Below, in pieces: positions 1 through 51,960 of a DNA stretch of 64,000 nucleotides. Where the stretch lies: assembly GCA_000091205.1 (NCBI GenBank), contig AP006486.2. One strand, given 5' to 3'. Origin of the DNA: Cyanidioschyzon merolae. Taxonomy: Eukaryota. The stretch's first letter is position 1, and the number at the start of each line of letters is the position of its first letter. A program made the translations under genes and the position numbers. Below the pieces are notes generated by a model. That model did no database searches. It had not been told where the DNA came from and worked only from the letters and a program-made list of their open reading frames with translations.

Positions 1-132
1 GGCGATCGCGCATTCGACGCCACGCGGCTGGGCGGGCGGGCGCCAACGCCAACGCCAGCCGACGACTAGTCTTCTGGTGCACCGGTTGCGCTGTTTAGAA
101 ACGCAGGGCGCTCGACGGGCTAGCTCCACACA

Positions 133-807
133 ATGTCCGTAAGACCAGATGACGAGTACGACTATCTTTTTAAGATTGTTCTCATAGGAGATAGCGGGGT
201 GGGAAAGTCCAACCTGCTCTCGCGCTTCACACGGAACGAGTTCAATCTAGAGTCCAAGTCAACGATTGGCGTTGAGTTTGCAACGCGCTCGGTGCAAACC
301 GACGGTAAAGTGATCAAAGCGCAAATCTGGGACACTGCCGGGCAGGAGCGCTATCGAGCAATCACCTCAGCATACTATCGGGGGGCTGTTGGCGCCCTTC
401 TCGTCTATGATATATCGAAGCGGTCGTCGTTTGAAAACGCGGAACGGTGGCTGAAAGAACTGCGAGACCACGCTGACCAGAACATTGTGATTATGCTCGT
501 TGGCAACAAGTCGGACCTGAAGCATCTTCGAGCTGTGACCACGGAGGAGGGTCAGCAGTACGCAGACGCAAGGGGTCTATCGTTTATTGAGACGAGCGCA
601 CTGGACGCTTCGCACGTGGAGGAGGCCTTCGTCCGCATCCTCACCGATATTTATCGCCTAGTGCACAAGCGCCATCTGGCCAGCGGTGATCCGACAGTCG
701 CTAAATCCGCCTCGGGTGCTGTCTACCAAGCGGGGCGTGGCGAGACGATCTCCGTCGGTAACTTGTCCCATGATAATCGCTCGTCGAAGCGCAAGTGCTG
801 TAGTTAA
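133..807 (+). CDS. RAB11: Rab11-family small GTPase (single exon, complete)
   Basis: ORF translation carries G1 GDSGVGKS, switch [16 protein letters not shown] and ETSAL motifs and a C-terminal KCCS prenylation tail. It is near-colinear with Rab11A over the whole length. Confidence 0.9.
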
Positions 808-1008
808 GGCGCCCGAGCACACGCACACGCACACATGCACCTGTTGACTGACTCGGTTAGGATCAGCGACGATAATCGCGCGTATTCCTTCGTCGGACTC
901 GGGCGTCAACCTCGGGTAACCGCACGATAAGGCGCAGACGTTTCCGAAAGCGTCATGTTCGCGGGTTCGCGCCATCTGCGAGGATTAGCATTTGCCGGAT
1001 CGGAGCAT

Positions 1009-1689
1009 TTACAGTGGATAAGAGTACTCAACCTGGTGTCCCGAATGCACGACGGCCGTCCCGAATGCATTCTGCGTGACAAAAAGCAGCATGACCTCGC
1101 CGGTGTTGCTATCCCGAATGATCCACGGGTGACCCACGTACGTGGGCTGGAAGCGGCTCTTGCCGGGTTCCAGCCACCCAAACGGTATCTCTTGACCATT
1201 GAAATCAATCCAGTTCACTTCGACGACAACACCGGAGTCAGAGAGGTTCTCAAAAAGAATTAAGGTTCGGTCTTCGGTTTCAGAAGAACGGATTCCCTCC
1301 CAGTGGGGGCGCAAGTTGGGCGCCGCGGTCAGTCCCTCAGAAAATGGCAACGTTGGCATATTCGTTTCGGGGAAAGGAGCGGGAAGCGAAATGCCGTCTT
1401 CTACCCAAAGTTGACGAGCCGGTTCCCGAACCATACGAACGATAGCTTGCTCATTTGATTGTGCTAAAGCGGCGAGTACGCCTTTGTTCTCGACAACGGA
1501 CCGCGGCGCCAGCAGCCAGTCCCAGGCGAAGGCCACAGTCGTCGTTGCGCTGCGCGAATAAGACCACTGGTTCGGTGCACAGCACCCACAACCGGAGCGA
1601 CGTCGCCATCGTATTGGAAGCTTTCTCGCACCGCCCGCATTACCAGCGGTGCTAAACCCCAAAACGTGAACAAGCGCACCCGTTCCCAT
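1009..1689 (-). CDS. VHL beta-domain-like protein (start codon uncertain)
   Basis: C-terminal half ...LILFENLSDSGVVVEVNWIDFNGQEIPFGWLEPGKSRFQPTYVGHPWIIRD aligns with the von Hippel-Lindau beta-domain ([48 protein letters not shown]). The N-terminal part is low complexity. Confidence 0.45.
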   Translation of the reverse strand: MGTGALVHVLGFSTAGNAGGARKLPIRWRRRSGCGCCAPNQWSYSRSATTTVAFAWDWLLAPRSVVENKGVLAALAQSNEQAIVRMVREPARQLWVEDGISLPAPFPETNMPTLPFSEGLTAAPNLRPHWEGIRSSETEDRTLILFENLSDSGVVVEVNWIDFNGQEIPFGWLEPGKSRFQPTYVGHPWIIRDSNTGEVMLLFVTQNAFGTAVVHSGHQVEYSYPL

Positions 1690-1819
1690 TCAAGCGCACG
1701 GAGGTCTTTTCGCGGTTGCAGCTCCCAAGCAAGCTCTGAAAATATGGTTCCGTTCAAAAAAAGATTCCCTGATACTTTACAAGTTTGTATATGTGTTAGA
1801 AAGCTGCAAGCGAAGATAC

Positions 1820-4345
1820 CGGTCTCGAGCAACACGATGTTCGAAAGTCGAACGTCGCCACCGGTGTACAGTAGTGGCGACCGGCGCCCTAGACAAGAAG
1901 TCGCTAACGGATGTGCAGACATCTCCCAGCCGCTTTGGACCGGCCACCTTCTACTGGTTCCAACTTTTTCTCGTATAGTTCCACTTTGAGAGGTTGTCCG
2001 ATAAAGTTCTCTCTTGTCGGCTCTGGAGGTCTTTTCTCTAGCACCGTACATTTCCTTATATTGATGGCGGCATTAAAGTCTCGGTTCACAAACTCCATCC
2101 GTTTCTTCCATCATTGCTTGTTCTAACCAGCGCAGGTAGTCCACGAACTTTCGTCCTCCTTTCCATTTGCTCCTCCTTCAGCGGTCCGCACTTTGCTATA
2201 TGTTCAGGGGTCCGTTGGCACTTTTCTTTCTCGACCATCTGAAGTGTACAACCCAGTTCATGGTGTGTATAGGACGTTCGAAACTCATCTATCGGTATCG
2301 TAACGAAGCGGCTTGTGCACTCCTTGTACGTTCTTGTTGACGGAGCTGTTGTACTCCCTTTCTTCGACGCCCAGCGTCCTGCCCCATACGCTACCAGGAG
2401 CCTCTGACTTCCATCCTCCTTCAAGGCGTTCAACCGGTTGAAAAAATTCGCAACCGCCCGCTGTTTTCCACAATACAAATTCATTCGCAAACGAGCCCAC
2501 CGGGGCTTGGTATACTCCGCCCACAGTGCATCCCCATGGGCAACACGAACATCCATGAATTTCCGAAAAGGTTCAAAGTCCGCTCCTCGGCTCGTCGCCT
2601 CGCTCAAAGCTTCCAGGTGATCCTTCATTTCTGCATTCCACGGACCAATTTTCTTTCTTGCATTCACTATACCGGATTCTCGATAGTATCTCGCTCTGGC
2701 GAGCCTCAAAAGACGCATGTCTGTCTGGCGTAAGTTGCAATCAGTACCATCATCCGCACGCTTGGGAGCAGCGATGGTTATGATATTTGTGTTTCTAGGA
2801 TCCCCGCCAACGACAAAGTCGTTATCCTGCACCTCCTGCATCGTAGGACCCGCCTCCTTCTCATCTTCATCCTTCGTCACGGGTGCAGCCGAGGACGGAA
2901 CTGAACAATCCGCGTTCAAGCGCCGATTGTGTGCACACAGGGCTACCCCATCGGTTTTGATCATCCCAGTAAATACCTTTTGCTTGCTCACTTTGAGACA
3001 TTTGAAATCGAAGATGTTCTTCCAGTACGTCTTCCGGTTTTCACCGGAGAACTCCTCCCTGCTAACATCGAACTCCGGACAGATCTCCTTCATGATGCCG
3101 TAAAGGATTCTGGAGTCGATAGTCACAAAATGTGACTTGATCTTGCCCAACGGAACCACGTCGAAGCGCTTCCCTACTAGGAAAGCCTTCCGTCTCTCCC
3201 ACTCTTCATTTTTCCCGTTCAGCTTCATCTCTGCCTTGCGTTCGAGTTCTCGGTCCAGAAACACGAAATAGCACAGAATGAGGCGATCGTATCTTTCCTG
3301 ATCTTTGCTCAACTCTGATACCTTGTCTGTTGGATTCGGTAGCCCCAGTACCGCACGATGCTCTTGTATAACCGCACGGATCGCAGAAGCTTCATTCGTG
3401 GTCTCGTTTGACGCCTTCTTGTCGACAAATTCTACCTCATCTTCACGCTTGCGATCTTTCATGATGCCATTGATAATCGTCCATTTTCCATTGCGAGAGA
3501 TGCCCGGGTAGAGTGCAAACACGGTGCGTATCATGAAACGTTCGAGGTTCCCTGTCTCATGGTTCTTCAGATTCGTGAGGTACTTCATCGCCCCATAGCT
3601 GTAGATATCTCGGTCACCCTTGTTTCGAGTATCTTTGAAGCTGTAAAAGGGATGTCTTTCGTGTAGGGCATGTACTTGCTCATTTTTCCCTCCGTGTTTG
3701 CCCTGAACCAAGCATCAGGTGACGAACGAAGGTCTTGTCGAAGATCTCGTCTGGAATCTCGACTGTTTTGATGGCCGCCACGTCGCGATACATCTCCCTC
3801 GCCAGATGCATCAGTCCTGACAACGCCTTGACGATACTCTTAGAGTACGAGTCGAAAAGGTTGTGGATGGCCTCTTGAAACATTTGCTTGTAGAGATCCT
3901 TGATGTAATTAAGAAGACAGGCTTTCACCACCATCTCGTTGTACAGTCGTCTTTCTTGCCGCCTTCGACGTGGGGCCTTCCCTCTTTCGGTTCTTCTTCT
4001 CCTCCTTTTCTTCTGGACACGGCACTGTTTTTTGTTTTTGTTTTCCAGCAGCCGGCGACCCTGGGCCTCCAGGATCGTCGACTCAGTTTTTCATAACTTT
4101 CCATTTTTTTGGTTTTTTTGAAAAAAGCACTCTGTGAACGCTTCTCCAATATACTACGAAAAAAACACTTGACTAGACTTGTTTGAGTTTTGAAACATAA
4201 ATGAACTGAAAAACTATACTTTGCTACGTCCTGAACGGAAATCCGACTTTTCCAGCTGAATAACACGCTACTGATCAAAATCGCGTTTCCCTTCAACAAC
4301 GGCACCGTGCGCGTCGTGTCTCATGCCTGCCAGATCTCCCAGGTG
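1820..4345 (-). mobile_element. Fanzor1-like (eukaryotic TnpB-like) element, family A, copy 1, ~2.5 kb, single ORF, no TIRs
   Basis: Ends were set by where similarity to copy 2 stops. The 5' end (in element sense) reads GCGCACCTGGGAGATCTGGC near 4345. The 3' end reads ...CCGGTGGCGACGTTCGACTTTCGAACA near 1820-1836. No terminal inverted repeats, as in IS200/605-type TnpB elements. Confidence 0.7.
1904..4104 (-). pseudogene. Fanzor1-like RuvC nuclease ORF (~730 aa reconstructed) broken by at least 3 frameshifts; largest intact piece 2086..3711
   Basis: RuvC-I QDNDFVVGGDPRNTNIITIA at ~2770-2826. Zinc finger CTSRF...HHELGC...KCQRTPEHIAKC at ~2185-2319. RuvC-III EFVNRDFNAAINIRK at ~2057-2083 sits in a -1 frame relative to upstream (1-nt deletion relative to copy 2 at ~2095). 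Further frame breaks at ~3700 and ~3930. Confidence 0.7.
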
Positions 4346-5019
4346 CGCTCACTATGCGTCGATTCGTTTTCCGATGTCAACACCTTGCCATAGAACATAG
4401 AATCCAGATTGCGGGATGGATACTGAAATAAATGAGAGCGCTCATTATTCTTCGCTCCACCTTCAAGTTCCATTACTTATACTTCCTCTGGGATCTACTG
4501 GTCGTTTCGTATATTCTATCGTGCACCGAGTGCCTGCCTCGCTGCACCTGCAATAGCGCCCGTATCGTTGGAGCAGCTGCATCACCGAGACAGAAGAGCT
4601 TTGCCATACCACTGAGGGCGTCGGATCGAGGAATACTTCTCCTCACACGGACTCGGAGTGCATAATCACTCTGGTAACCAGCATGCTGTGCTTAAAGGCC
4701 TACTGCCTGTGGCAGCGCGGAGCGATGTACTAGGAGCCACTGCGACCAGCGCAACGCCCAGAAGCAGCGTACCCGCTCCTAGTCCCAGGATAAACTGCGT
4801 TGCGGACGGACTGCTCAGATCGGACCAAAGCACCTGCCACTGGGAGGAGCATGAAGCACGAGGCTAGCTGTCTCGTACGACTCATGGGACCTTCCACCAA
4901 GAAGGTAAACCTTCGGCAATATGGAAAGCTTTCCCCTTTTAACGTTTCTCGTAGAGGGGTAACGAAATTGTTATCTCATTACTGCGTGGTCGCTCGTTGC
5001 TGTTCTTTTTCCTAGAGCG

Positions 5020-7530
5020 CAGTCTGTTAGCACACCTGGGAGATCTGGCGGGCGTGAGACACGACTTGCAACTCGCAGTTGAAGCGAAACACGATCCTGA
5101 TCATTTGTAGACTTGTTACTGTGACTGGCAAGTTGTATTTGCATGAAAGTCGTAGCAAAGTATAGTCTTTCAGTTCTATCATGTCTCAACCACCAAGTAA
5201 CTGTATTCAAGTGATATTTCGCGGTTTATAGCGGAAGCGTTAATCGTGAACTCGTTTGCAAAAATAAATAAAGTTATGGAAATGAAAGTAGAGGATCCTG
5301 GAGGGCCTGTGCCGCCGCGTGCCGAGAAAAATACGGAAAACAGTGCCGTCCATGAGGAACAGGTGAAGACGGTGAAGCAAAAGGGGGCGAACCGACACCA
5401 GAACCTGCACGAAAGACGACAGTACGACGAATTGGTAGTGAAAGCCTGTCTTCTTGAACGTAACGCGGATCCCGTGAAGCAAAAGTTCTGAGATGCCATC
5501 AGAAACCCTACTGCATCTCACTCCTTGAGTGTTTGTAACGCATCTTCAGCACCAATTCATCTGACGAAGGAGATGTACCATGACGTGACGGACATCAAAA
5601 AAGTCGAGGCTCCGGAAGAATTGTCCAACGTGACCTTCCTTCGCCACGAGATGCTTGACACATGGGAAACAACGAGGAGAAATGAGCGAGTGCATGCACT
5701 CTACGAAAATTATGCAGAGTGCCGCTCCAACGGCACTCGATATAGGGGTGACTCAAATGTTCACAATTACGTGGCGATGAAGTACCTCTCGAATCTGAAG
5801 AACAAAACGACCATGAACCTGAAACGCTTCATGATACGCTCCATCTTTGCGCTCTACCCTGGGCTGTCTCGAAAAAAAAGGATATGGGCCATCATGATTG
5901 GCATCACGAACGATCGTCGGGATGCACAGGAGATCGAATTCGTGAACAAGAGGACATCACACAGGAGAAGGAAGACGCTTCTTTGATCCGTGCGGCGATT
6001 CATAAGCACCGCGTGGTTTTGGGGCTTGTCAACCCAACAGAAAAGGTTTCAGATATGAAAAAAGATGTTTTTCCCGCATCCTGCGCTAGTTCGTGTTCCT
6101 GAAGCGTGAACTCGGACGCAAGGCCGAAAAGGAGCTGAATGGGGGAAAAATGGAGAGTTGTTGGAACGGAAAGCTTTCGTACTGGGGGAACGCTTCAATG
6201 TCGTTTCGTTTTGCAACATCTAGTCAATGTTTGTTACATTCGACTTCAGAGTCCTTCATGGCATCATGAGGGAGATCAGTCCAGGGTTCGATGTGAGGAA
6301 GATACGGTTCATCGGCGAGAAACCGGGAGACATACCAGAAGAACATCTTCGATTTGAGACATCTCAAAACGAGCAAGAAAAAGTATTAACGGAGATGATC
6401 GAAACCGATGGAGTAGCCGTATTCGTACACTATAGTCGCTTGAAGGCAGATCGTCCTGTTCCGTCTTCGCTATCGCACTTGGCGAAACGTGAAGAAAACA
6501 AGGATGCGGATCCTGCGACACAGAAAGTGCAGGATAACGACTTTGTCGTTGGCGCGAACCCCGGAAACACGAATATCGTAACCATCGCTGTGCCCAGGCG
6601 TGCGGAAGATGGTACTGACGGCAACTTACGCCAGAAAGACATGTGTCTTTTGAGGCTCGCCAGAGCGAGATACTATCGAGAATCCGGTATAGTGAATGCA
6701 AGAAAGAAAATTGGTACGTGGAATGCAGAAATGAAGGATCACCTGGAAGCTTTGAGCGAGGCGACGAGCCGAGGAGCGGACTTTGAACCTTTTCGGAAAT
6801 TCATGGATGTTCGTGTTGCCCATGGGGATGCACTGTGGGCGGAGTATACCAAGCCCCGGTAGGCTCGTTTGCGAATGAATTTGTATTGTGGAAAACAGCG
6901 GGCGGTTGCGAATTTTTTCAATCGGTTGAACGCCTTGAAGGAGAATGAAAGTCAAAGGCTGGTAGTGGCATACTGAGCAGGGCGATGGAAGACCCGAAAA
7001 GGGTGTACGCCAGCTCCAATGACAAGAGCGTACAAGGAGTGCACGACGTTTCGTTACAATGCCTGTCGATGAGTTTCGAACATCGTATGCACACCATGAA
7101 CTGGGATGTACACTTCAGAAGGTCGAGATGGAAAAGTGCTAGCGGAGCCCTGAACATATAGCAAAGTGCGGACCGCTGACGGAGGAGCAAATAGAAAGGA
7201 GAGCGAAAGTTCGTGGACTACCTGCGCTGGTTAGAACAAGCAATGATGGCAAGAAACGGATGGAGTTTGTGAACCGAGACTTTAATGCCGCCATCAATAT
7301 AAGGAAATATACCGTGCTGGAGACGAGACCTCCAGAGCCGACAAGAGAGAACTTTATTGGACAACCTCTCAAAGTGGTACTATACGAGAAGAAGTTGGAA
7401 GCAGTAGTGGGTGGCCGGTCCAAAAAGACTGCGAGGCGCCTGCACATCAGTTGGCGTCTTCTTGTCTAGGGCGCCGGTCCCCGTTACTGTACACCGGTGG
7501 CGACGTTCGACTTTAGAACAGCGTTGATGG
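5020..7530 (+). mobile_element. Fanzor1-like element copy 2 (mosaic: 5' half family-B-like, 3' ~0.7 kb ~97% identical to copy 1), inverted head-to-head with copy 1
   Basis: Same termini as copy 1 (5' ...GCACACCTGGGAGATCTGGCGGG at ~5029, 3' ...CCGGTGGCGACGTTCGACTTTAGAACAGCG at ~7526). A ~675 bp spacer (4345-5020) separates the two inverted copies. Confidence 0.7.
5246..7469 (+). pseudogene. Fanzor1-like nuclease ORF, copy 2, multiple stops/frameshifts; RuvC-I aspartate replaced by asparagine
   Basis: ORF pieces 5246..5491, 5525..5986, 6227..6862 and 7260..7469. RuvC-I reads DNDFVVGANPGNTNIVTIA (D->N at ~6557). An in-frame TAG sits in the zinc-finger region (~7141). RuvC-III MEFVNRDFNAAINIRK at 7260-7307 is in frame with LPALVRTSNDGKKR upstream. 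Confidence 0.7.
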
Positions 7531-7563: not shown

Positions 7564-8292
7564 ATGCCGCCACCAAACGACTCGCAGCGGTACTTCGAAG
7601 AGGGGCCCGTTCTTGCGCACCGCACGGACTGGAAACCCATCGCTGAGCGCTCAACTGCACAGCGCCCTGAGCCAGCACTGCAGGCAACCACAGAAGCGCC
7701 GAGCTGGTGGCGACAGGTGACGCGGCGTGGCGCTCGTGTCTTCCTCTTTTACGCGCTTCTTTATCCGTTGCTGGTGCTTTGTGTGGTAGGCGGTATTGTT
7801 GGTGGGTTCATCGGCGGTTTTTGGCTTGACTGGCACGCCATTCGACTGGCCGGCAACGCCTGGCTGGCGCTTGTCTCTATTCCGTATGCGACCGGTTTCC
7901 TTGCGCTCCTGTGGTTGATGCGAGCGGAGAGCTTCCGTGGGGCTTCCGCGGGCGCACTGAGCTTCGCATCGAACGCGCTTGGGAATGCAGCTAGTCGCTG
8001 CACTGCTCGCCTTTTGTTGTCATTGTCAATATCTGGGTCACTGGCGCTCCCCGCGTTTCTCTTCCTGAGCCGGCGGGTGCCGGCAGACGCAGCCCTGATC
8101 TGCACCGCAGGCACCGCTGTGATTTGTGCTTCGCTGGCGCTATGGGCGTTCGTTTTGGAGAGTGACTGGCTGGAGCCGCGAACCTGGCTCGAGCCCACAG
8201 CCCCATCGAACGTGTGGATACGACCCTCGTACTGGCCTCGACGTGAACATTATATCGACCTGGAAGCAGCGCCTACACGGACTGGCGGATAG
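7564..8292 (+). CDS. hypothetical multi-pass membrane protein
   Basis: 242-aa ORF with several hydrophobic segments and codon bias like neighbouring genes. No recognisable domain. It starts ~35 bp after the copy-2 element end. Confidence 0.3.
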   Translation: MPPPNDSQRYFEEGPVLAHRTDWKPIAERSTAQRPEPALQATTEAPSWWRQVTRRGARVFLFYALLYPLLVLCVVGGIVGGFIGGFWLDWHAIRLAGNAWLALVSIPYATGFLALLWLMRAESFRGASAGALSFASNALGNAASRCTARLLLSLSISGSLALPAFLFLSRRVPADAALICTAGTAVICASLALWAFVLESDWLEPRTWLEPTAPSNVWIRPSYWPRREHYIDLEAAPTRTGG

Positions 8293-17914: not shown

Positions 17915-18416
17915 CGTCGAATAACGAGCAAGGAATGCGCTGCGGCTGGAGCGAAGCGCCGGTGGGCGTCCACCGGCGCAGCTCAGGGGGAACGATCGTT
18001 GAGGCAGGCGCTTTCGTGGCGTACGCTTTATGGGCCTTTACCTCGAGTGTATTTTATCCTCAGGTGTGGGTAACCAATTGCTTATCCATGGTGCATAGCG
18101 GATGCGTTAGAAGTGCGTTCATTGGAAGGAAGAAAGGCTGTCATCGCCGGATGCGATAAAAAATACCAAAAAAATGTCTCTTGTCGCCGACTGCCGAGCG
18201 ACGGCGATAAAGAAAAACAAGAGGGCATCTAGGCGAGGAAAGGCGTTCGCCCGGCCTGGCGATGGCCAGACTCTAGGGGTACAGGGGGGTGAGGGTGAGG
18301 GGGGTGTTCGACTCTGAGCAATCCCTGAATTGGTGCGTTCAACCAGCGGCACTGCATATAAGGAGTTCATCAACGAAGACTTTTCACACCACGATCGATA
18401 CCAAGCGACGGGTGTG

Positions 18417-18560
18417 GTGCTGGAGACGAGAAACCCGAGGAGCTGACGCGATCCAGCCCAGTCGGACAGCCGCTCACGGTCGACTTGTACAACGACAAGT
18501 TGGAATCAGTACCAAGGGGCCGGTCAAAAAAAGTCGCGAAGCACCTGCACGTCGGTCTCT
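18417..18560 (+). repeat. solo degenerate 3'-terminal fragment of the Fanzor element (RuvC-III-downstream region)
   Basis: ctggagacgagaaacccgaggagctgacgcgatccagcc...gttggaatcagtaccaaggggccggtcaaaaaaagtcgcgaagcacctgcac aligns with copy-2 7315-7455 (ctggagacgagacctccagagccgacaagagag...gttggaagcagtagtgggtggccggtccaaaaagactgcgaggcgcctgcac). Confidence 0.5.
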
Positions 18561-18707
18561 CTACATACACGCTACGGTCGGAATGCACTTTGGTGCTGCA
18601 TCGGTGGCGGCATTCGTACCGCATAGCGTAGCACATACCGCTGCCTAGTCAGGCACGATGCATCACGCGAGGTCGTCCGCTGCTACGCGAAACGCGCTTC
18701 CAGCGTC

Positions 18708-31345: not shown

Positions 31346-31527
31346 ACCAGTGCATTGAAAGCGAGAGATGTGTGTTGAATGAAACGAAGAAGGCGCTGCG
31401 ATCACAGAGGGCATACATAAACACCCACTCACAGACGCCTCCGAGCCCTTTTCGACGGGCCGCCTGCTATCGGCTACAGTTTTTATCGCAGCGCACTTCG
31501 TGTTGAGCGGCTGCCCGGTAAGCTTAG

Positions 31528-32000
31528 ATGGCGGCAGCTCTGCGAGTCTCTTGTCGTCAGCACCGCACACATCATCTGGTATTGGTGGCAGCATTGAAAT
31601 CTGGGTTCTCGAGCTCCATGCGTTTATTGCCGCTGAATGAACTCGCCAGCGCAAGGATTCCTCTAATTTGTACCCTCTGTGGAAATACAGTCTCACCATC
31701 GTCCCGTCGGGCAAACACCTCTTCTCGCATATACCCCATCGTCTTCGTCACTTGCGTTTCTTCGCTCGATTGTCGGCGAGAAGAAGATTTTTTCGTTTTG
31801 TTTTCGGGCACCCGGCGATGATGGCCCTCCAGGATCCGCGACTTTCCGGTCCATACCTTCCCATTAGATTTTTATTTCTTCAAATGAACGCACTTTGAAC
31901 GCTTCTCCAATAAACCGCGAAAGCGCATTTGATGACACGGAAGTGAGCGTGCAATGCAATTAAGGTGAAAGACTATGCCAGCGCGAGCATATGCTAGACC
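31528..32000 (-). mobile_element. internally deleted non-autonomous derivative (mini-element 1) of the family-A Fanzor element
   Basis: The 5'-end-homologous part (31800-32000) aligns with copy-1 3900-4300 (e.g. ccctccaggatccgcgactttccggtcc vs cctccaggatcgtcgactcagtttttc; gaacgcttctccaata shared). The 3' part retains a decayed RuvC-III block (ENPDFNAATNTR at ~31581-31607, minus strand). About 1.8 kb of ORF is missing. Confidence 0.55.
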
Positions 32001-33483
32001 AATGCATTGATGAACATGGCCCGTAACGTACGGGCACACGACACAGGCCGCGTGCGGACGGACGCTGCTCTGCCCCCTGTTTACCACATAGGAGCGGAAG
32101 GAGTAGGACTCGGCTGTTCGAACACCAGATCTAAGCATTCGTATGCAGAGTGAGCGAATCGAGGATCTGTTGCTCGATGGACCATGCACGCTGTGCAAAA
32201 GCTCGCTGTACTGATTTCAAGCGAATAGGACACATAGCGGTCGTTGTCCATACAACCAACTCGCTTCGGAGAGCAGTTCATGTACATCAGTGCATCGTGC
32301 ATCATCTTGCGGGAAGGTTTTGGCGGGTCTGTTCGACACAAAACCTCAGTTGTCTTACAGGACGCTCCTATGCGATTTGCAGCACGAAATCAAAAAGTAT
32401 ATACGAGTTATCGGAATCGATACACGAAAGCATTACTTGGGCGACGCACTCGAGCATTCAGGACGGGCATGATTGCAGAAGCTGCGCCCTGCAGTCCACG
32501 AATTCCTCTAGGGGCTTCGATTTCCCTCTTTACAAATTAGTCACAAAGATTCGAGCTGAGCTCGCTAACAACGGTCAGGTATCATCCACGTTCGATTTTG
32601 AATACCGCCTGTTGCTCATATACAGACCATAATGCCGAACAAGCATCTAGTTATTCTCAGAATGCCGCCGAGCAGACTCATACAGTACCCATCAGCCGTG
32701 ACGCGACTTGGTCGCTGTGGGGCACTCTGTCTGAGCAAAGCGCGAGTCCCCTGGCAATAGAGCCTCGCGCCTCGACAGCTCATGGCAGGCGCCAGACGAA
32801 CACATGCGAGAGCTGCACAAGTTCAGCGAAGCGCTTCCCCTGTTCCGACCTTACCCCGGTGTCGATACCCGTACACGTTCACGAAAGTAGACTTTGCAGC
32901 CAGACCCGAGAGCGATTGCAACCGATTGACACTAAAACAATGGTTTTCGTTCGAGTACCCTGTGACACGTGAGAGCGGCCGGGTCCTCGCCGCTGCCTCG
33001 TTCCAGACCAGCTACTCTGCAGCTGCGTACGCTACGAACAAGAGCCAGCAACCCACGCGCACCGTTTTCAACCGCCCGCGTGTGGAGCAGAGGCATCACA
33101 AGAATCGTCTTTCCACTCGGGCCCCAGTGTTCGTGACTCGTACACAGCAGCTCGAAGCGAAGTATCAATCGCCGAAGCGAGCTGCTCCACGAGACGCAGT
33201 TTCTCGCTGAGTTCTTGAGTTTTCGACTGCAGACTCTCCACGGTGGAGTTCATGTCCCTGACAGCAAGTAAGAGTTCCTCTAAAGCGGCTATAGACGCTT
33301 GTTCCGGTGCTTGCATTACCCCGCTCTCTACACAGGAAAAGCGCACAGTGTTTTGTCCAGCAAACTGAGTGCCAATCTAACAGCGGTGTCCGCGCAGCTG
33401 GGCGGCGCCGCCTCCGCCACGTACGACAGCAGAGCGAACGGGACGGGACACGCAACCCGCCGCGTGCGCGCCTCCGTTATGCT

Positions 33484-33990
33484 TTTCCATCTCAATTGCG
33501 TTCCATGCCCAGGTGCGTTTCATTGAATGCTCTCTCGTGGTTCATAGCAGAGGCGGTGGAAGTGCGTCCCTTTGATGCGCTAAACATCTGAGGGAAATGG
33601 ATGGGCGTGAAAGTCGGGAGTCCTGGACAGCTTCTATAGCCGGGTGTCCGAAAAAGAAATGAAAATAGTTTTCCCTCGCCGACAATCGAGCGAGGAAGCG
33701 CAAGTAACGGCGAAGAAGACGACGAAGAGGGTAGACCGGCGAGAAAAGTGTTTATCCTGCGGGAGAGTCACGAGACTGTTGCTGGACAGAGGCCAAGAAC
33801 GCTTGGGATCCTCGCACCGGTGCAATCAACCAGAGGCAATGCACGTACGGAGTTCGTGAACCGAAACGTAACATTGCCATCATTACGCGACGATGCTCGT
33901 GGAGCTGACGCGAGCCAACTTTGTTCGTGTAGCTCTAGCTCCAGCAGAATCGGCAAACGCTCAAACACGCAGGGCCTGGTGAAATCCCAA
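33484..33990 (+). mobile_element. internally deleted derivative (mini-element 2) of the family-B Fanzor element (copy-3-like)
   Basis: 5' part tccatctcaattgcgttccatgcccaggtgcgtttcattgaatgctct aligns with copy-3 49595-49650 ctaaactcaattgtgttccatcgccaggtgcgtggaatcaaatgctct. 3' part has decayed RuvC-III TEFVNRNVT and gagctgacgcgagccaactttgt matching copy-3 51770-51800. Confidence 0.5.
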
Positions 33991-40551: not shown

Positions 40552-40623
40552 TGCGCAAGCGAGGAATCGAACCTCGATCTTCACGGCCACAACGTGATGT
40601 TCTGACCGTTAAACTACTTGCGC
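40552..40623 (-). tRNA. tRNA-His (anticodon GTG)
   Basis: Minus-strand sequence GCGCAAGTAGTTTAACGGTCAGAACATCACGTTGTGGCCGTGAAGATCGAGGTTCGATTCCTCGCTTGCGCA folds as a cloverleaf. Acceptor GCGCAAG/CTTGCGC, anticodon stem TCACG/CGTGA with loop TTGTGGC (GTG), T-arm CGAGGTTCGATTCCTCG, discriminator A. No genomically encoded G-1. Confidence 0.8.
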
Positions 40624-44785: not shown

Positions 44786-45229
44786 TTGCGTTGCCGAAGA
44801 AGAGCGGGACGCGGCCCTGCGTTGCTAGACTTTCACGCACCTACGCTCAGATTGTGGGCGAGCTTTAGGCGCACGTCAGGCGCAGCGCGCTGCTGGGGCG
44901 CTCTTCTCCGTGGGTACGACGCCGCAGCCGCCGCAGCCGCCGCAGGCACCCTCGCTGTTGGCTCACGGAGGCGGTGGCGATGTGCGCGCGTCGGGCGGCA
45001 GGTCATAATGCGAGTGTCCTGTTTATTCCATAAAGTTCTGTTTCATCAGCGACACGCTGTGGTATGCGAAAGTGTTGGGCTGGCTCTTGTGCATGGACCG
45101 ACAACCGTGTTGGCATGCAATGGAACAGGTACTTTACCAAGACATACCATTGAAACAAAAGATGTCTTCAGGGAATGGAGTATATATACGCACCAGCAGA
45201 CGACTCCCAGCCTTTATTGACCGGCCCAC

Positions 45230-45800
45230 TGTTATAGTTTTTCAGTTTATCTAGGTACAGTTCGGGTGCCAAAGACTGCCCCACGACGTTGGATCGCTTC
45301 AGCTCTTCGAGTATCGTCTTCAGCACCGCATATCGTCTGATACAGATGGAGATGTTGAAGTCTTGCTTGAATATACCATCGCAGGGATTGCTGGCACTTG
45401 TACCCTCTCTGCCGCAACAGGCTCGTCATTGTCCCGTCAAGCAAACTGCCTTACTCGCCTATCTGCCCTTTTCTTGTTAGTCATTTGCTATTCTCTGCTC
45501 GATGGTCGGCGTGAAGAGGGTTCTTCTTTTTTGTGAAATTCGCCTATGAGAGTCCATCAGGATCCCCGACTTGCGTGTCCATAACTTTCCTTCATTTTTT
45601 TAAATCTTCAAATGAACGCACTTGTTTATGCCCAAAGGTGAGGAGTCTCCCCCGACTGCGAAGGACTTGTGGAAGAAAGATGACGCGTGCCCCAATGTCT
45701 ACATGTGCTGAACGCTTCAGCGAGTCGCCCAGTCCAGCGATCATTACGTTTTACCATAGAAAACACTCTAGCCATGGGTTTGAACCAGGCAGCGCGCTAA
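45230..45800 (-). mobile_element. internally deleted derivative (mini-element 3) of the family-A Fanzor element, same deletion junction as mini-element 1
   Basis: 45290-45640 aligns continuously with mini-element 1 31560-31915 (e.g. ccatcaggatccccgacttgcgtgtccataactttcc vs ccctccaggatccgcgactttccggtccataccttcc; tcttcaaatgaacgcact shared). The 45640-45790 stretch continues into the 5'-end region (ctgaacgcttc, aaaacactctagcc vs copy-1 aaaacacttgactag). Confidence 0.5.
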
Positions 45801-49587: not shown

Positions 49588-51960
49588 GTGCATTTCTATC
49601 CTCTAAACTCAATTGTGTTCCATCGCCAGGTGCGTGGAATCAAATGCTCTTCCGCGGTTCATTGCAGACGTGCTCGATGTGGGTTCATTTGAAGAAATAA
49701 AAAGTTCTGCGAATGGAATTGGAGACTTCTGGAAGCCTGATTTCGCCGGCTGCCGCAGAAAAACGAAAAGCAGTGTTGAGCGAAGAGGAACAAGACAGCA
49801 TGAAGAGGCAGAGGCAGGAGGCCCTGCGTCAAAAGCTGCTCGAAAGATGAGAGTACGACGAGACGGTCGTGGACGCCTGTCTTCTTGTACATGTCAAGGA
49901 TCCGTATGAGCAAACGATGCAAGCGGACGTCAGAAACCGTGTCGAGTCGTACCGCATAAGTATGATAAAGGCCGCTCCAAGACTGATGTATGTGGTAACG
50001 AAAGTGTATCGCGACATAACGCACGCGGAAACAATCGAGTTTCCAGAGGAAATTTCCAACGTAACCTTCATCGGCCACCTGACGCTTGCCACCGGGGAAA
50101 CGTCGAGGTGAAATGAGCGGGTGCATGGCCTCCATGAAAATTACGCCAAATACCGCCTCAACGGCACTCGATACAGGGATGACTCGGGTGTTTACACCTA
50201 CGGGGCGTTGAATTACCCTACGAACCTGAGAAAGCATATGAACATGAACCTGAAACGCTTCATGGTACGCGCCGTCATTGCGCTGTACCCGGGCCTCTCT
50301 CGCAAAGGGATACGAGTCATCATCCGTGGCATCACGAATGATCGACAGCATGAACAGGAGATCGAATTCTTCCACAAGAAGACATCACGCAAGAGAAAGA
50401 ATGAAGCTTCTGTAATCCGTGCGGCTATTATTGAGCACCGTGCAGTCTTGGGGCTTGTCAACCTACAAGAAAAGATATCAGATAGGAAAAAAGATGAAGA
50501 AAGATGTTATCCCCTAATCCTGCGCAATTTCGTGTTTTTTGACCGAGAACTCGAACGCAAAGCCGACATGGAGCTGAGTAGGGGAAAATGCGCAGTCGGA
50601 GAGACGCAAGGCTGCGGTTCCGGGGAGGCGCCTCAATATCGTTCCGTTATGCTACGTCAAGTCACGCGTTGTGACAATCGACTCCACAATCCTTTATACC
50701 ATCATGAAGGAGATCAGTCCCGAGTTCAATGCAAGCAGGGAGAAGTTCACCCGCGGAGACGGGAAAATCTACCGGATGAATATCTTCGATTTCAAGCGCC
50801 TCAACACCAGCAAGAAAAAGTTATTCACTGGGATGATCGAAAGCGATGGAGTAGCCGTGTGTGGAGACTATCGGCGCTTGAAGGCGGATCGCCCAGTTCC
50901 GTCATCGGCTTCGCCCTTGGCGAAGCATGAAGAAAACAAAGAGGCTGGCAGTACGAAACAGGAGGCGCAGGAGGACGACTGTGCCGTTGGCGCGGACCCG
51001 GGAACACGAATATCGTACCCATCGCAGCACCCAAGCGTGCGGAAGACGGTATCGACGGCAACTTACGCCACAATGACATGCGACTTCCAAAGTACTTGAG
51101 AGCGAAAAATTGCCGATAATCGGGAATAATGAATGCAAGGAAGGAAAGTGAGACATGGAATGCAGGAGTGAGCGCGCACCTGGAAGCTATGAGCAATTTC
51201 GCGAGTCGTGGATCGAACTTTCATTTCTTTCGTGAATTCATGGAATATCAAGCTGCTCGTGACGAGGAGCTGTGGAAATAGCAAACAGAACCGCGATGGG
51301 CTCGTCTGCGAATGAATCCGCACAGAGGGAAGCAGCGCGCGTTCGCGAAATTTTTCAAACAGTTGATTGCCCTCATGGAGGACAAGAGTCAAAGGCTCAT
51401 ACTAGCATACGGAACTGGGCGCTGGGCACCCGGAAAAGGGTGTGTACCCGCCCCGTCGACGAGAGCGTACAAGGAGTGCGCACGATGTTTTGTCACGATA
51501 CCGGTAGATGAGCTCCGAACATCGTATGTGGATCATGAACTGGGATGTCCACCTCCGAGAGTCGAGATGGAAAAGTGCCCGTGGAGCCCTGAGGATATAA
51601 AAAAGCACGGAGAGCTGACGGAGCATCAAATGGCTCAGAGGGCGCGAGTTGGAGGACTCCTTGCATAGGTGAGCTCTACCAACGGTAACAAACGCACTGA
51701 CTTCGTGAACCCAGACTTTAACGCCGCTATCAATATCAGACGACGTGCTGTATTGGAGAAGAGATATCCCGAGCTAACGAGAGCCAACTTTGTCGGGCAA
51801 CCTCTTAAGGTGGCACTCTACGAGAAGCATTTGAAACCGATCGCAGCGGGCCGGTCGTAAACGGCCGGGAGACGCCTGCCGGGTGGATACCTATCTACCC
51901 TATGTGGCCGTGGAACATTTTTCGTTTCACTGACAAATGAGTTTGCGCTGGTAGCGCGTA
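49588..51960 (+). mobile_element. Fanzor1-like element copy 3 (family B, ~55-60% protein identity to family A), 3' end approximate
   Basis: 5' boundary was set by the end of homology with mini-element 2. The 3' region gggccggtcgtaaacggccgggagacgcctgc parallels the family-A ggtggccggtccaaaaagactgcgaggcgcctgc. Confidence 0.6.
49700..51860 (+). pseudogene. Fanzor1-like nuclease ORF copy 3, broken into pieces (49869..50111, 50121..50930, 50671..51099, 51312..51668, 51669..51860)
   Basis: N-terminal MYVVTKVYRDITHAETIEFPEEISNVTFIGHL and NERVHGLHENY...LYPGLSRKG...IEHRAVLGLVN...FVFFDRELERKA are homologous to copies 1 and 2. RuvC-I DDCAVGADPGTR has a frameshift inside the motif. Zinc finger KECARCF...HELGCP...KCPWSPEDIKKHG. 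RuvC-III DFVNPDFNAAINIRRR at ~51705-51737. Confidence 0.65.

Follow-up and report, generated by a model that had tools for sequence, protein, structure and literature searches.

One Fanzor1 family has been recorded for the red alga Cyanidioschyzon merolae, namely the 734-aa protein CMe-1, encoded by the element CMe-1A (Bao and Jurka 2013, Mobile DNA 4:12; PMC3627910), and the 2023 census by Jiang et al. took in rhodophyte Fanzors as well. CMe-1A was described as a 3169-bp consensus with ~150 copies at ~80% identity to it, with no terminal inverted repeats (TIRs) and with neither its target duplications nor its class determined, and its 5' 635 bp are 95% identical to TE-N2_CMe, a separate 70-copy element (PMC3627910). 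The same work gave the Fanzor1 motif as D-X(125,275)-[TS][TS]-X-X-[C4 Zn finger]-X(5,50)-RD (Bao and Jurka 2013, PMC3627910). A rearranged RuvC site with a relocated Glu has been shown to be functional in Fanzors (Jiang et al. 2023, PMC10530073), and the CCCC zinc finger is conserved between SpuFz1, the Fanzor1 of Spizellomyces punctatus, and the ISDra2 TnpB (Saito et al. 2023). Here we analyzed a 64,000-nucleotide stretch of C. merolae DNA (contig AP006486.2 of assembly GCA_000091205.1; hereafter the window), in which a preliminary description had seen a family of TnpB-like, putatively RNA-guided RuvC nuclease elements of Fanzor1 type. Our results lead us, with high confidence, to regard these as old, inactivated insertions of CMe-1A, a TIR-less family with a single open reading frame (ORF) that encodes the Fanzor1 protein CMe-1; both the family and its presence in C. 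merolae have been known since 2013.

The window was compared with itself by blastn, and the extents of the copies were set by blastn against the published 3169-bp consensus, which gave three long copies:

c1, 1835-4353, minus strand: CMe-1A copy, consensus ~660-3169, without the 5' TE-N2-like module; Fanzor1 pseudogene
c2, 4372-7523, plus strand: full-length CMe-1A copy (consensus 1-3169); heavily decayed Fanzor1 pseudogene
c2 5' noncoding module, 4372-5025, plus strand: equivalent of the 635-bp TE-N2_CMe part of the published consensus
c3, ~49593-51932, plus strand: divergent "B-type" copy, consensus ~800-3084 plus a different ~60-nt 3' tail; pseudogene

Identity to the consensus is 84.5% for c1 (positions 660-3145), 82.2% for c2 (positions 1-3145, window 4372-7502), and 80.4% for c3 (positions 800-3084), and it is by this 80-85% nucleotide identity, together with 67-76% amino acid identity to CMe-1 in the consensus frame (76% for c1), that the window copies are assigned to CMe-1/CMe-1A. 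The three long repeats lie near the places first given for them, except that the limits of 5020-7530 proposed for c2 had to be redrawn: the consensus covers c2 from position 1, so that what looked like a spacer next to c1 belongs to c2 as its 5' module, ~650 bp that had fallen outside the original boundaries. Copies c1 and c2 stand head to head, with their 5' ends (4353 and 4372) less than 20 nt apart. They are 78.6% identical over 2532 nt, and this identity is a mosaic of 66-75% in the 5' 1.6 kb, 99% over ~300 bp, 74% over the next 150 bp, and 93-95% in the last 300 bp, a pattern of sequence that suggests gene conversion tracts between the inverted neighbors. Copies c1 and c3 are 72.0% identical over 2153 nt, and with 47-60% identity at the protein level they agree roughly with an earlier division into two subfamilies that are ~55-60% identical. 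As a separate observation, a hairpin of a C run and a G run (CTTTCCCCC...GGGGGAAAG; z, -2.1) lies at ~4930-4965 in c2, which corresponds to consensus 553-600 near the 3' end of the TE-N2-like module, and related loci (L084, L019) now and then show compensatory C-G to T-A changes in it.

Lesions were counted by codon-wise alignment of each copy to the published consensus ORF:

c1: three frameshifting indels, two premature stops, no change at the three catalytic motifs
c2: eight frameshifting indels, six premature stops, RuvC-I Asp changed to Asn
c3: three frameshifting indels, six premature stops, a frameshift in the RuvC-I Asp codon, and NPD for NRD (R to P) in RuvC-III

Each element had been credited with one ORF of ~700 aa, a statement that does not survive this count, as the longest ORF has 541 aa (in c1) and every copy carries 3 to 8 frameshifts and 2 to 6 stops. 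Because the c1 lesions recur in independent metagenome contigs that are 96-97% identical, sequencing error at the frameshift sites is unlikely. All three copies are pseudogenes, inactive and old.

The family has proliferated, as had been supposed, with seven copies or derivatives in the window and 244 relatives in hot-spring metagenome contigs. Eighty of these 244 related loci were examined in detail, and a complete ORF was found in none of the 80, the best being 722 and 747 aa long (consensus residues 53-699 and 133-731). The deletion derivatives that had been announced for the window are four in number:

f18, approximately 18031-18603, plus strand: internally deleted, ~200 bp of the 5' part and ~350 bp of the 3' part of a B-type element
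f31, approximately 31380-31975, minus strand: short internally deleted derivative
f33, approximately 33480-33960, plus strand: short derivative with a degenerate 3' part
f45, approximately 45151-45640, minus strand: short derivative with a truncated 5' part

These four derivatives of ~0.45 to 0.6 kb have one internal deletion in common, roughly from consensus position 1000 to 2750, and what they retain of a c3-type element is ~200 bp at the 5' end and ~350 bp at the 3' end, its distinct 3' tail included; this tail is also found in related loci L039 and L087. They are 65-70% identical to one another, and the deleted form was therefore amplified long ago and mobilized in trans; they show that the ends alone sufficed for past mobilization in trans. 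The 2013 description is without such ~0.5-kb derivatives, and the TE-N2_CMe element reported there is the 5' module only (PMC3627910). Two of the related loci also contain an 801-aa ORF (L076:5226-7628 and L081:4143-6548) that begins within the final 92 codons of a CMe-1 copy and runs on into a glycerol-3-phosphate oxidase/dehydrogenase (DAO) gene; this read-through ORF is probably a gene-calling artifact.

The central proposal of the preliminary description, a proliferated family of Fanzor1-type, TnpB-like RuvC proteins in a eukaryote, is upheld both by the nucleotide identity to the CMe-1A consensus and by profile matches. A phmmer search of a 5.8-billion-protein collection with the frameshift-corrected c1 protein (734 aa) returned three groups of relatives: ~40 close relatives annotated only as PF26935/DUF8286; three intact proteins of ~699 aa at 40% identity (P0038 to P0040); and three proteins of 682-690 aa (P0041 to P0043) at 24-25% identity over 72-86% of the length, with E values of 4.5e-12 to 2.4e-10. 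The last three are PF07282-positive (Cas12f1-like TNB/OrfB zinc-ribbon domain) and carry the Fanzor1 motifs ALDPGRRT, DEFRTSKCCASCG, CDSTDC, and DRDDNAARNI. A combined profile of the clade and the bridging homologues matched the cryo-electron microscopy chain of SpuFz1 (8GKH) with an E value of 4.8e-8 over ~380 positions, and in the same comparison with the PDB no Fanzor2, TnpB, or Cas12 chain was matched. This combined profile includes the bridging proteins P0041 to P0043, and the test was rerun with the CMe-1 clade alone. When the clade-only profile was aligned to SPu-1 of S. punctatus, hhalign gave 80% with an E value of 1.4e-5 over 330 columns, with the blocks FxxxP..IKSHFxTID, ETDG, DPG (RuvC-I), DE[FY]xTS, KV[RH]GLL, and NRD in register; P0041 by itself reached a Parasitella Fanzor1 in the PDB only at an E value of 0.09. 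Judged by these alignments, the Fanzor1 homology of the family is real but remote. The profile match to TnpB or Fanzor, whose absence was to refute the proposal, failed in the standard libraries (Pfam and NCBIfam) and came through only in bridged or profile-profile searches. The choice of Fanzor1 over Fanzor2 also stands: the consensus protein has 734 aa and is not compact as a Fanzor2 of ~400-500 aa would be, no serine recombinase lies nearby, and the PDB matches of the profile are to Fanzor1 chains only. Its N terminus is basic (KKRK...KKQKREARRQR) and, by sequence, resembles a nuclear localization signal.

The catalytic motifs could be placed in the window copies as follows:

c1 longest surviving ORF, 2086-3711, minus strand: 541 aa, TTG start, has RuvC-I and DEFRTS and ends before RuvC-III
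c1 RuvC-I GGDPRNTN, 2785-2805, minus strand: inside the 541-aa ORF
c1 RuvC-III NRDFNAAINI, 2057-2086, minus strand: in another frame than the 541-aa ORF
c2 RuvC-I GANPGNTN (D to N), 6554-6574, plus strand

A 1-nt deletion has put the RuvC-III motif of c1 into a frame other than that of the 541-aa ORF. The peptides quoted when the elements were first described are all present, QDNDFVVGGDPRNTNIITIA and ...THHELGC...KCQRTPEHIAKC in that ORF and the RuvC-III peptide EFVNRDFNAAINIRK at 2057-2086 (minus strand) and 7272-7301 (plus strand). The RuvC-I Asp stands in a hydrophobic-G-x-D-P-G context (VVGGDPRNTN in c1, VVGADPGNTN in the family consensus), and IPIDEFRTS follows ~175 residues downstream of it, within the 125 to 275 residues of the Fanzor1 motif. 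The canonical RuvC-II position is occupied by Gly (VAYGAGRW), with an alternative Glu in DEFRTS, an arrangement that matches the rearranged site of Jiang et al. 2023 (PMC10530073). RuvC-III reads NRDFNAAINI in c1 and c2 and NPDFNAAINI in c3.

The C-terminal zinc finger that had been read from the same peptides has to be given up: all four canonical Cys are replaced in this lineage, and the quoted Cys are not conserved in the family. The stretches TSKCCASCG...CDSTDC of P0041 to P0043 and TSSVCPRC...GCTNPNC of SpuFz1 align to TSYTHHELG...ALVSTTS of CMe-1; P0039 reads THYEKGN, so that the His and Cys of THHELGC are lost as well, and the KCx8KC pattern is specific to c1 and c2, the family consensus being KC...KY. 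This loss of the zinc finger is why the Pfam zinc-ribbon model misses the family. Just upstream of RuvC-I, a unit of ~33 aa (...KHEExKEAxPATQxVQDNDxVV...) is present in 2 to 4 tandem copies in P0001, P0003, P0007, and P0012, and the window copies have one such unit (alignment columns 470-580).

At the 3' end, 41 distinct ends were taken from the window and the 80 related loci, and most of these copies have a hairpin that extends to the final nucleotides of the element. In the two adjacent window copies it lies as follows:

c1 3'-terminal hairpin, 1835-1855, minus strand: GTTCGA-CTT-TCGAAC, then ATCG
c2 terminal hairpin, 7503-7523, plus strand

The hairpin occurs in two versions with shifted registers, CGTTTTTC-tttt-GAAAGRCG and CGTCGTTCGA-ctt-TCGAACGGCG, and the right ends of the elements read ...GAAAGGCG or ...TCGAACGGCG. 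Column-based covariation is inapplicable to a hairpin in two shifted registers; compensatory changes in it are occasional, for example TTCTA/TAGAA in L021. In c1 the terminal hairpin is preceded by an 8-bp hairpin (GTCGCCAC...GTGGCGAC), and the last 72 nt (1834-1905, minus strand) fold as two adjacent hairpins with -16.1 kcal/mol and a z score of -2.8 (DNA fold). The 3' untranslated region (UTR) also contains a conserved noncoding motif, CGCCACTACTGTACAC. That T·G pairs are tolerated on the sense strand fits an RNA or sense-strand reading and is suggestive only.

Several results weigh against taking these elements for nuclease genes of Fanzor1 type with a guide RNA. Pfam and NCBIfam scans of the ORFs and of the frameshift-corrected 734-aa c1 protein gave no significant match (TNB domain at an E value of 0.36), and a hidden Markov model of the clade alone, used in hmmsearch against the PDB sequences, retrieved neither a Fanzor nor anything else. 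An AlphaFold2 model of P0039 from a 42-sequence alignment had a mean predicted local distance difference test score (pLDDT) of 48.7 and a predicted template modeling score (pTM) of 0.28, too poor for a fold comparison. In CMe-1 the alignment shows H, L, L, and S/T in place of the four Cys of the CCCC finger, and with the finger absent the nuclease competence of an intact CMe-1 is therefore a prediction from homology. RNAalifold of the 3' 335 nt of the 41 copies gave only -4.2 kcal/mol and one compensatory pair, and two explicit 3'-UTR hairpins did no better than shuffles, of which 180/500 and 247/500 paired as many cells. An IS200/605-like omega-RNA made from the 3' end, as originally envisaged, is therefore unproven, the structure and covariation tests on the 41 copies being negative; for CMe-1A we can only infer one, and by analogy.

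How CMe-1A moves is a separate question from what it encodes. The view that the elements have neither TIRs nor a second, transposase ORF is confirmed, a TIR search on c1, c2, and c3 having returned c1/c2 homology only. Across the 80 loci the 3' end is constant, and the 5' starts vary (consensus 1, 84, 146, 241, 494, 640-700, and 740). The core is joined, with a 5' junction near consensus 640-700, to at least three upstream modules other than the TE-N2-like one (in L076/L081; L025/L027/L030/L055; L028/L042/L050/L059/L071/L079/L087; and L020/L047). TTTT is found within 12 nt upstream of 11 of 14 full-length copies, compared with 2.7% of random window 12-mers, and the first base downstream is T in 21/21 copies. 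No significant hairpin was found at the 5' end, where the first 70 nt fold with a z score of -0.14. An empty site was sought in the ten related environmental contigs that are orthologous at the PP6 gene; all ten carry the same insertions, which are fixed in these contigs. A check for a co-mobilizing transposase or a Rep/helicase among the large ORFs that flank 10 related loci was negative and met only host genes (GTPases, AlaRS, an XPD-type helicase, PGM, RNase III, and others).

Among the possible carriers we rank a rolling-circle-like element first, a decayed mariner derivative second, and an IS200/605-like element third. The first of these, a non-autonomous rolling-circle/HUH-type element (Helitron2-like, one-ended) mobilized in trans, is tentative and would account for the constant 3' end that finishes in a hairpin exactly at the terminus, for the variable 5' start points and alternative upstream modules, for the flanking TTTT and T, and for the missing TIRs. 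It fits what was reported for the Helitron2-type Fanzor1 elements of Chlamydomonas, which insert after TTTT and before T/C and have a 3' hairpin and 5' truncation (PMC3627910). However, no 5' hairpin was found, the candidate asymmetric terminal repeat amounts to only ~5/7 nt, no Rep/helicase was met in the window or next to the 10 related loci, no empty site fixes the exact ends, and the very authors who defined Helitron2 left CMe-1A unclassified.

A little less probable is that CMe-1A arose from a Fanzor1 element of Tc1/mariner type by loss of the DDE transposase and the TIRs and has since spread by other means or not at all. The genes of P0038 to P0040, which at 40% identity have the same zinc-finger-less motif, lie downstream of a DDE_3 (Tc1/mariner/IS630-type) transposase gene in three independent contigs, L003, L004, and L006 (Ga0102927_1001833, k141_248122, and Ga0209937_1003833), which carry the intact 699-aa relatives between imperfect inverted repeats of ~30 nt with TA at their outer ends, 3.55-3.58 kb apart. 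The window copies are devoid of TIRs, of a TA duplication or TA-flanked ends, and of a DDE transposase, and both the ~150 genomic copies and the short derivatives that share the TIR-less ends speak for mobility of the TIR-less form itself. Between the transposase and Fanzor1 genes of L003, L004, and L006, an 18-nt unit (CGTCTCGACCATTTCG...) is tandemly repeated.

We also consider it possible, at rather long odds, that CMe-1 and its mariner-borne relatives make up a natural Fanzor1 lineage that has lost the CCCC finger of the NUC/TNB domain and has remained under selection, the C. merolae gene being borne by a TIR-less carrier, unclassified in 2013, whose spread was linked to rolling-circle movement or to a guide RNA. 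The single-strand or rolling-circle option would here be Helitron2- or IS91-like, and what can be cited for such a carrier are the 3'-terminal hairpin, the T-run sites, the 5' truncations and alternative 5' modules, and the ends-only derivatives of ~0.5 kb.

The carrier first proposed for these elements, a "TnpB-only" element of the IS200/605 type that is moved by peel-and-paste with a Y1 transposase, now looks improbable. A single TnpB-like ORF without TIRs, a 3'-terminal hairpin, and a preference in the flanking sequence would all be expected of it, but Fanzor1 genes have been found in Mariner, Helitron, Sola, IS4-like, MuDr, hAT, and Crypton elements and not with an IS200/605 TnpA, a hairpin at the 5' end was not detectable, and the nearest intact relatives reside in Tc1/mariner-type elements.

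That the three loci might be functional Fanzor1 genes, intact RNA-guided nucleases with omega-RNAs, is very improbable. The catalytic motifs are recognizable, c1 retains D, E, and D in its sequence, and some intact genomic copies were reported in 2013 (Bao and Jurka 2013, PMC3627910); against this stand the frameshifts and stops of each copy, the D-to-N change in RuvC-I of c2, the frameshifted RuvC-I and the R-to-P change in RuvC-III of c3, and the interval from CMD063C to CMD066C, the pair of genes that brackets c1 and c2, which is without an annotated protein. For the three copies of the window, the frameshifts, stops, and motif changes refute this reading. The genes at window 7564-8292 and 1009-1689 have consecutive accessions (BAM79146 and BAM79147), but between their locus tags, CMD063C and CMD066C, two numbers are skipped; these absent tags probably label c1 and c2 as nonprotein features in the original annotation.

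The host genes are eukaryotic, as had been recognized at the outset. Seven proteins of the window, including Rab11, a VHL-like protein, Kae1/TsaD, PP6, and a radical-SAM protein, are exact matches to C. merolae 10D proteins, all on one 513,455-bp record (locus tags CMD063C to beyond CMD085C), and the window is therefore part of nuclear chromosome 4 of the red alga. The gene order, including c3 and f45, recurs in ten independent environmental contigs of 18-120 kb, and c1 and c2 are found also on metagenome contigs of 25.9 kb and 176 kb. A bacterial contaminant or a chimeric contig, already doubted in the preliminary description, has next to no probability, as nothing but the prokaryotic ancestry of TnpB speaks for it and the identity of the flanks with 10D chromosome 4, the recurrent gene order, and the separate contigs with c1 and c2 all speak against it; contamination and mis-assembly of the window are excluded. 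A chance motif match as an explanation of the elements was likewise rejected. The repeat regions have a G+C content of 0.485-0.495, below that of most of the window (0.53-0.60), and a tRNA-His (GTG) at 40552-40623 on the minus strand is the sole Rfam or ARAGORN match in the window.

By homology to characterized Fanzor1 systems, an intact CMe-1A element would make a nuclear protein, CMe-1, of ~734 aa, which may bind an omega-RNA/fRNA. This RNA would be copied from the region between the 3' end of the ORF and the element's right end and would continue, as a 3' extension, into the flanking DNA. The predicted RuvC triad, composed in this family of the Asp of VGADPG, the relocated Glu of DEFRTS, and the Asp of NRD, would then cut matching DNA beside a short motif, and this cleavage might help the element to persist or spread. 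The window copies c1, c2, and c3 are incapable of such a mechanism, given their frameshifts and stops, and two of them have substitutions at or next to catalytic residues.

Since the family is published, the identification of Fanzor1 in C. merolae adds little to discovery, and the window copies are dead; neither the search for a genome-editing nuclease nor the mapping of an omega-RNA should start from them. The fact that this lineage evades Pfam and NCBIfam and is without the family-defining zinc finger is relevant to automated screens for Fanzor and TnpB, and the better-defined ends (terminal hairpin, T-rich flanks, and ends-only derivatives), together with the Tc1/mariner-borne relatives, offer handles for classifying CMe-1A.

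Among the known systems, the TnpB proteins of IS200/IS605 elements (such as ISDra2) and Cas12f share with CMe-1 the RuvC superfamily and the RDxNAAxNI signature of RuvC-III, and the 3' end of a TnpB element encodes the guide RNA. TnpB differs in being prokaryotic and ~400 aa long, with a canonical RuvC-II Glu and a CCCC finger, and direct sequence or profile searches with the CMe-1 clade matched none of the TnpB or Cas12 chains of the PDB. The mariner/Tc1 elements with Fanzor1 are represented by PUl-1 of Pythium ultimum (3620 bp, with a 24-bp TIR and TA). Its layout is seen again around P0038 to P0040, with a DDE_3 transposase and Fanzor1 in TIRs of ~30 nt that end in TA, ~3.6 kb in all, whereas the window elements have neither transposase nor TIRs. 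The Helitron2-type elements CRe-1, CRe-2, and CRe-3 of Chlamydomonas reinhardtii resemble CMe-1A in being non-autonomous, with one Fanzor1 ORF, no TIRs, a 3' hairpin, 5' truncation with over-representation of the 3' end, and insertion beside T runs; they differ in their verified Helitron ends, introns, and 5' hairpin or asymmetric terminal inverted repeat, none of which is evident in CMe-1A.

SpuFz1 (Saito et al. 2023; PDB 8GKH) is alike in a RuvC/REC-proximal core that is homologous over ~330-380 residues, with FxxxPxxxIKSHxxIDT, ETDG, DPGxxxI, DE[FY]xTS, KV[RH]GLL, and NRD in register, and both proteins have basic N termini. Identity to it is only ~20%, and SpuFz1 has its own CCCC zinc finger in the NUC domain, of whose four Cys CMe-1 has none; its element is 2.1 kb long with 33-bp TIRs and a TA duplication, in contrast to the TIR-less CMe-1A, and its activity and omega-RNA have been demonstrated, whereas those of CMe-1 are predictions. 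The closest system is the published CMe-1A family itself, from which the window copies differ in that all of them are pseudogenes, that c1 and c3 are without the 5' module, and that c3 and the four short derivatives have another 3' tail, a subtype absent from the text of the paper; the C4 zinc finger in the family motif of Bao and Jurka is missing from CMe-1 itself. With the published element the window copies share the absence of TIRs, the single ORF, the ~80% identity to the consensus, and the 5' module of ~635 bp held in common with TE-N2_CMe.

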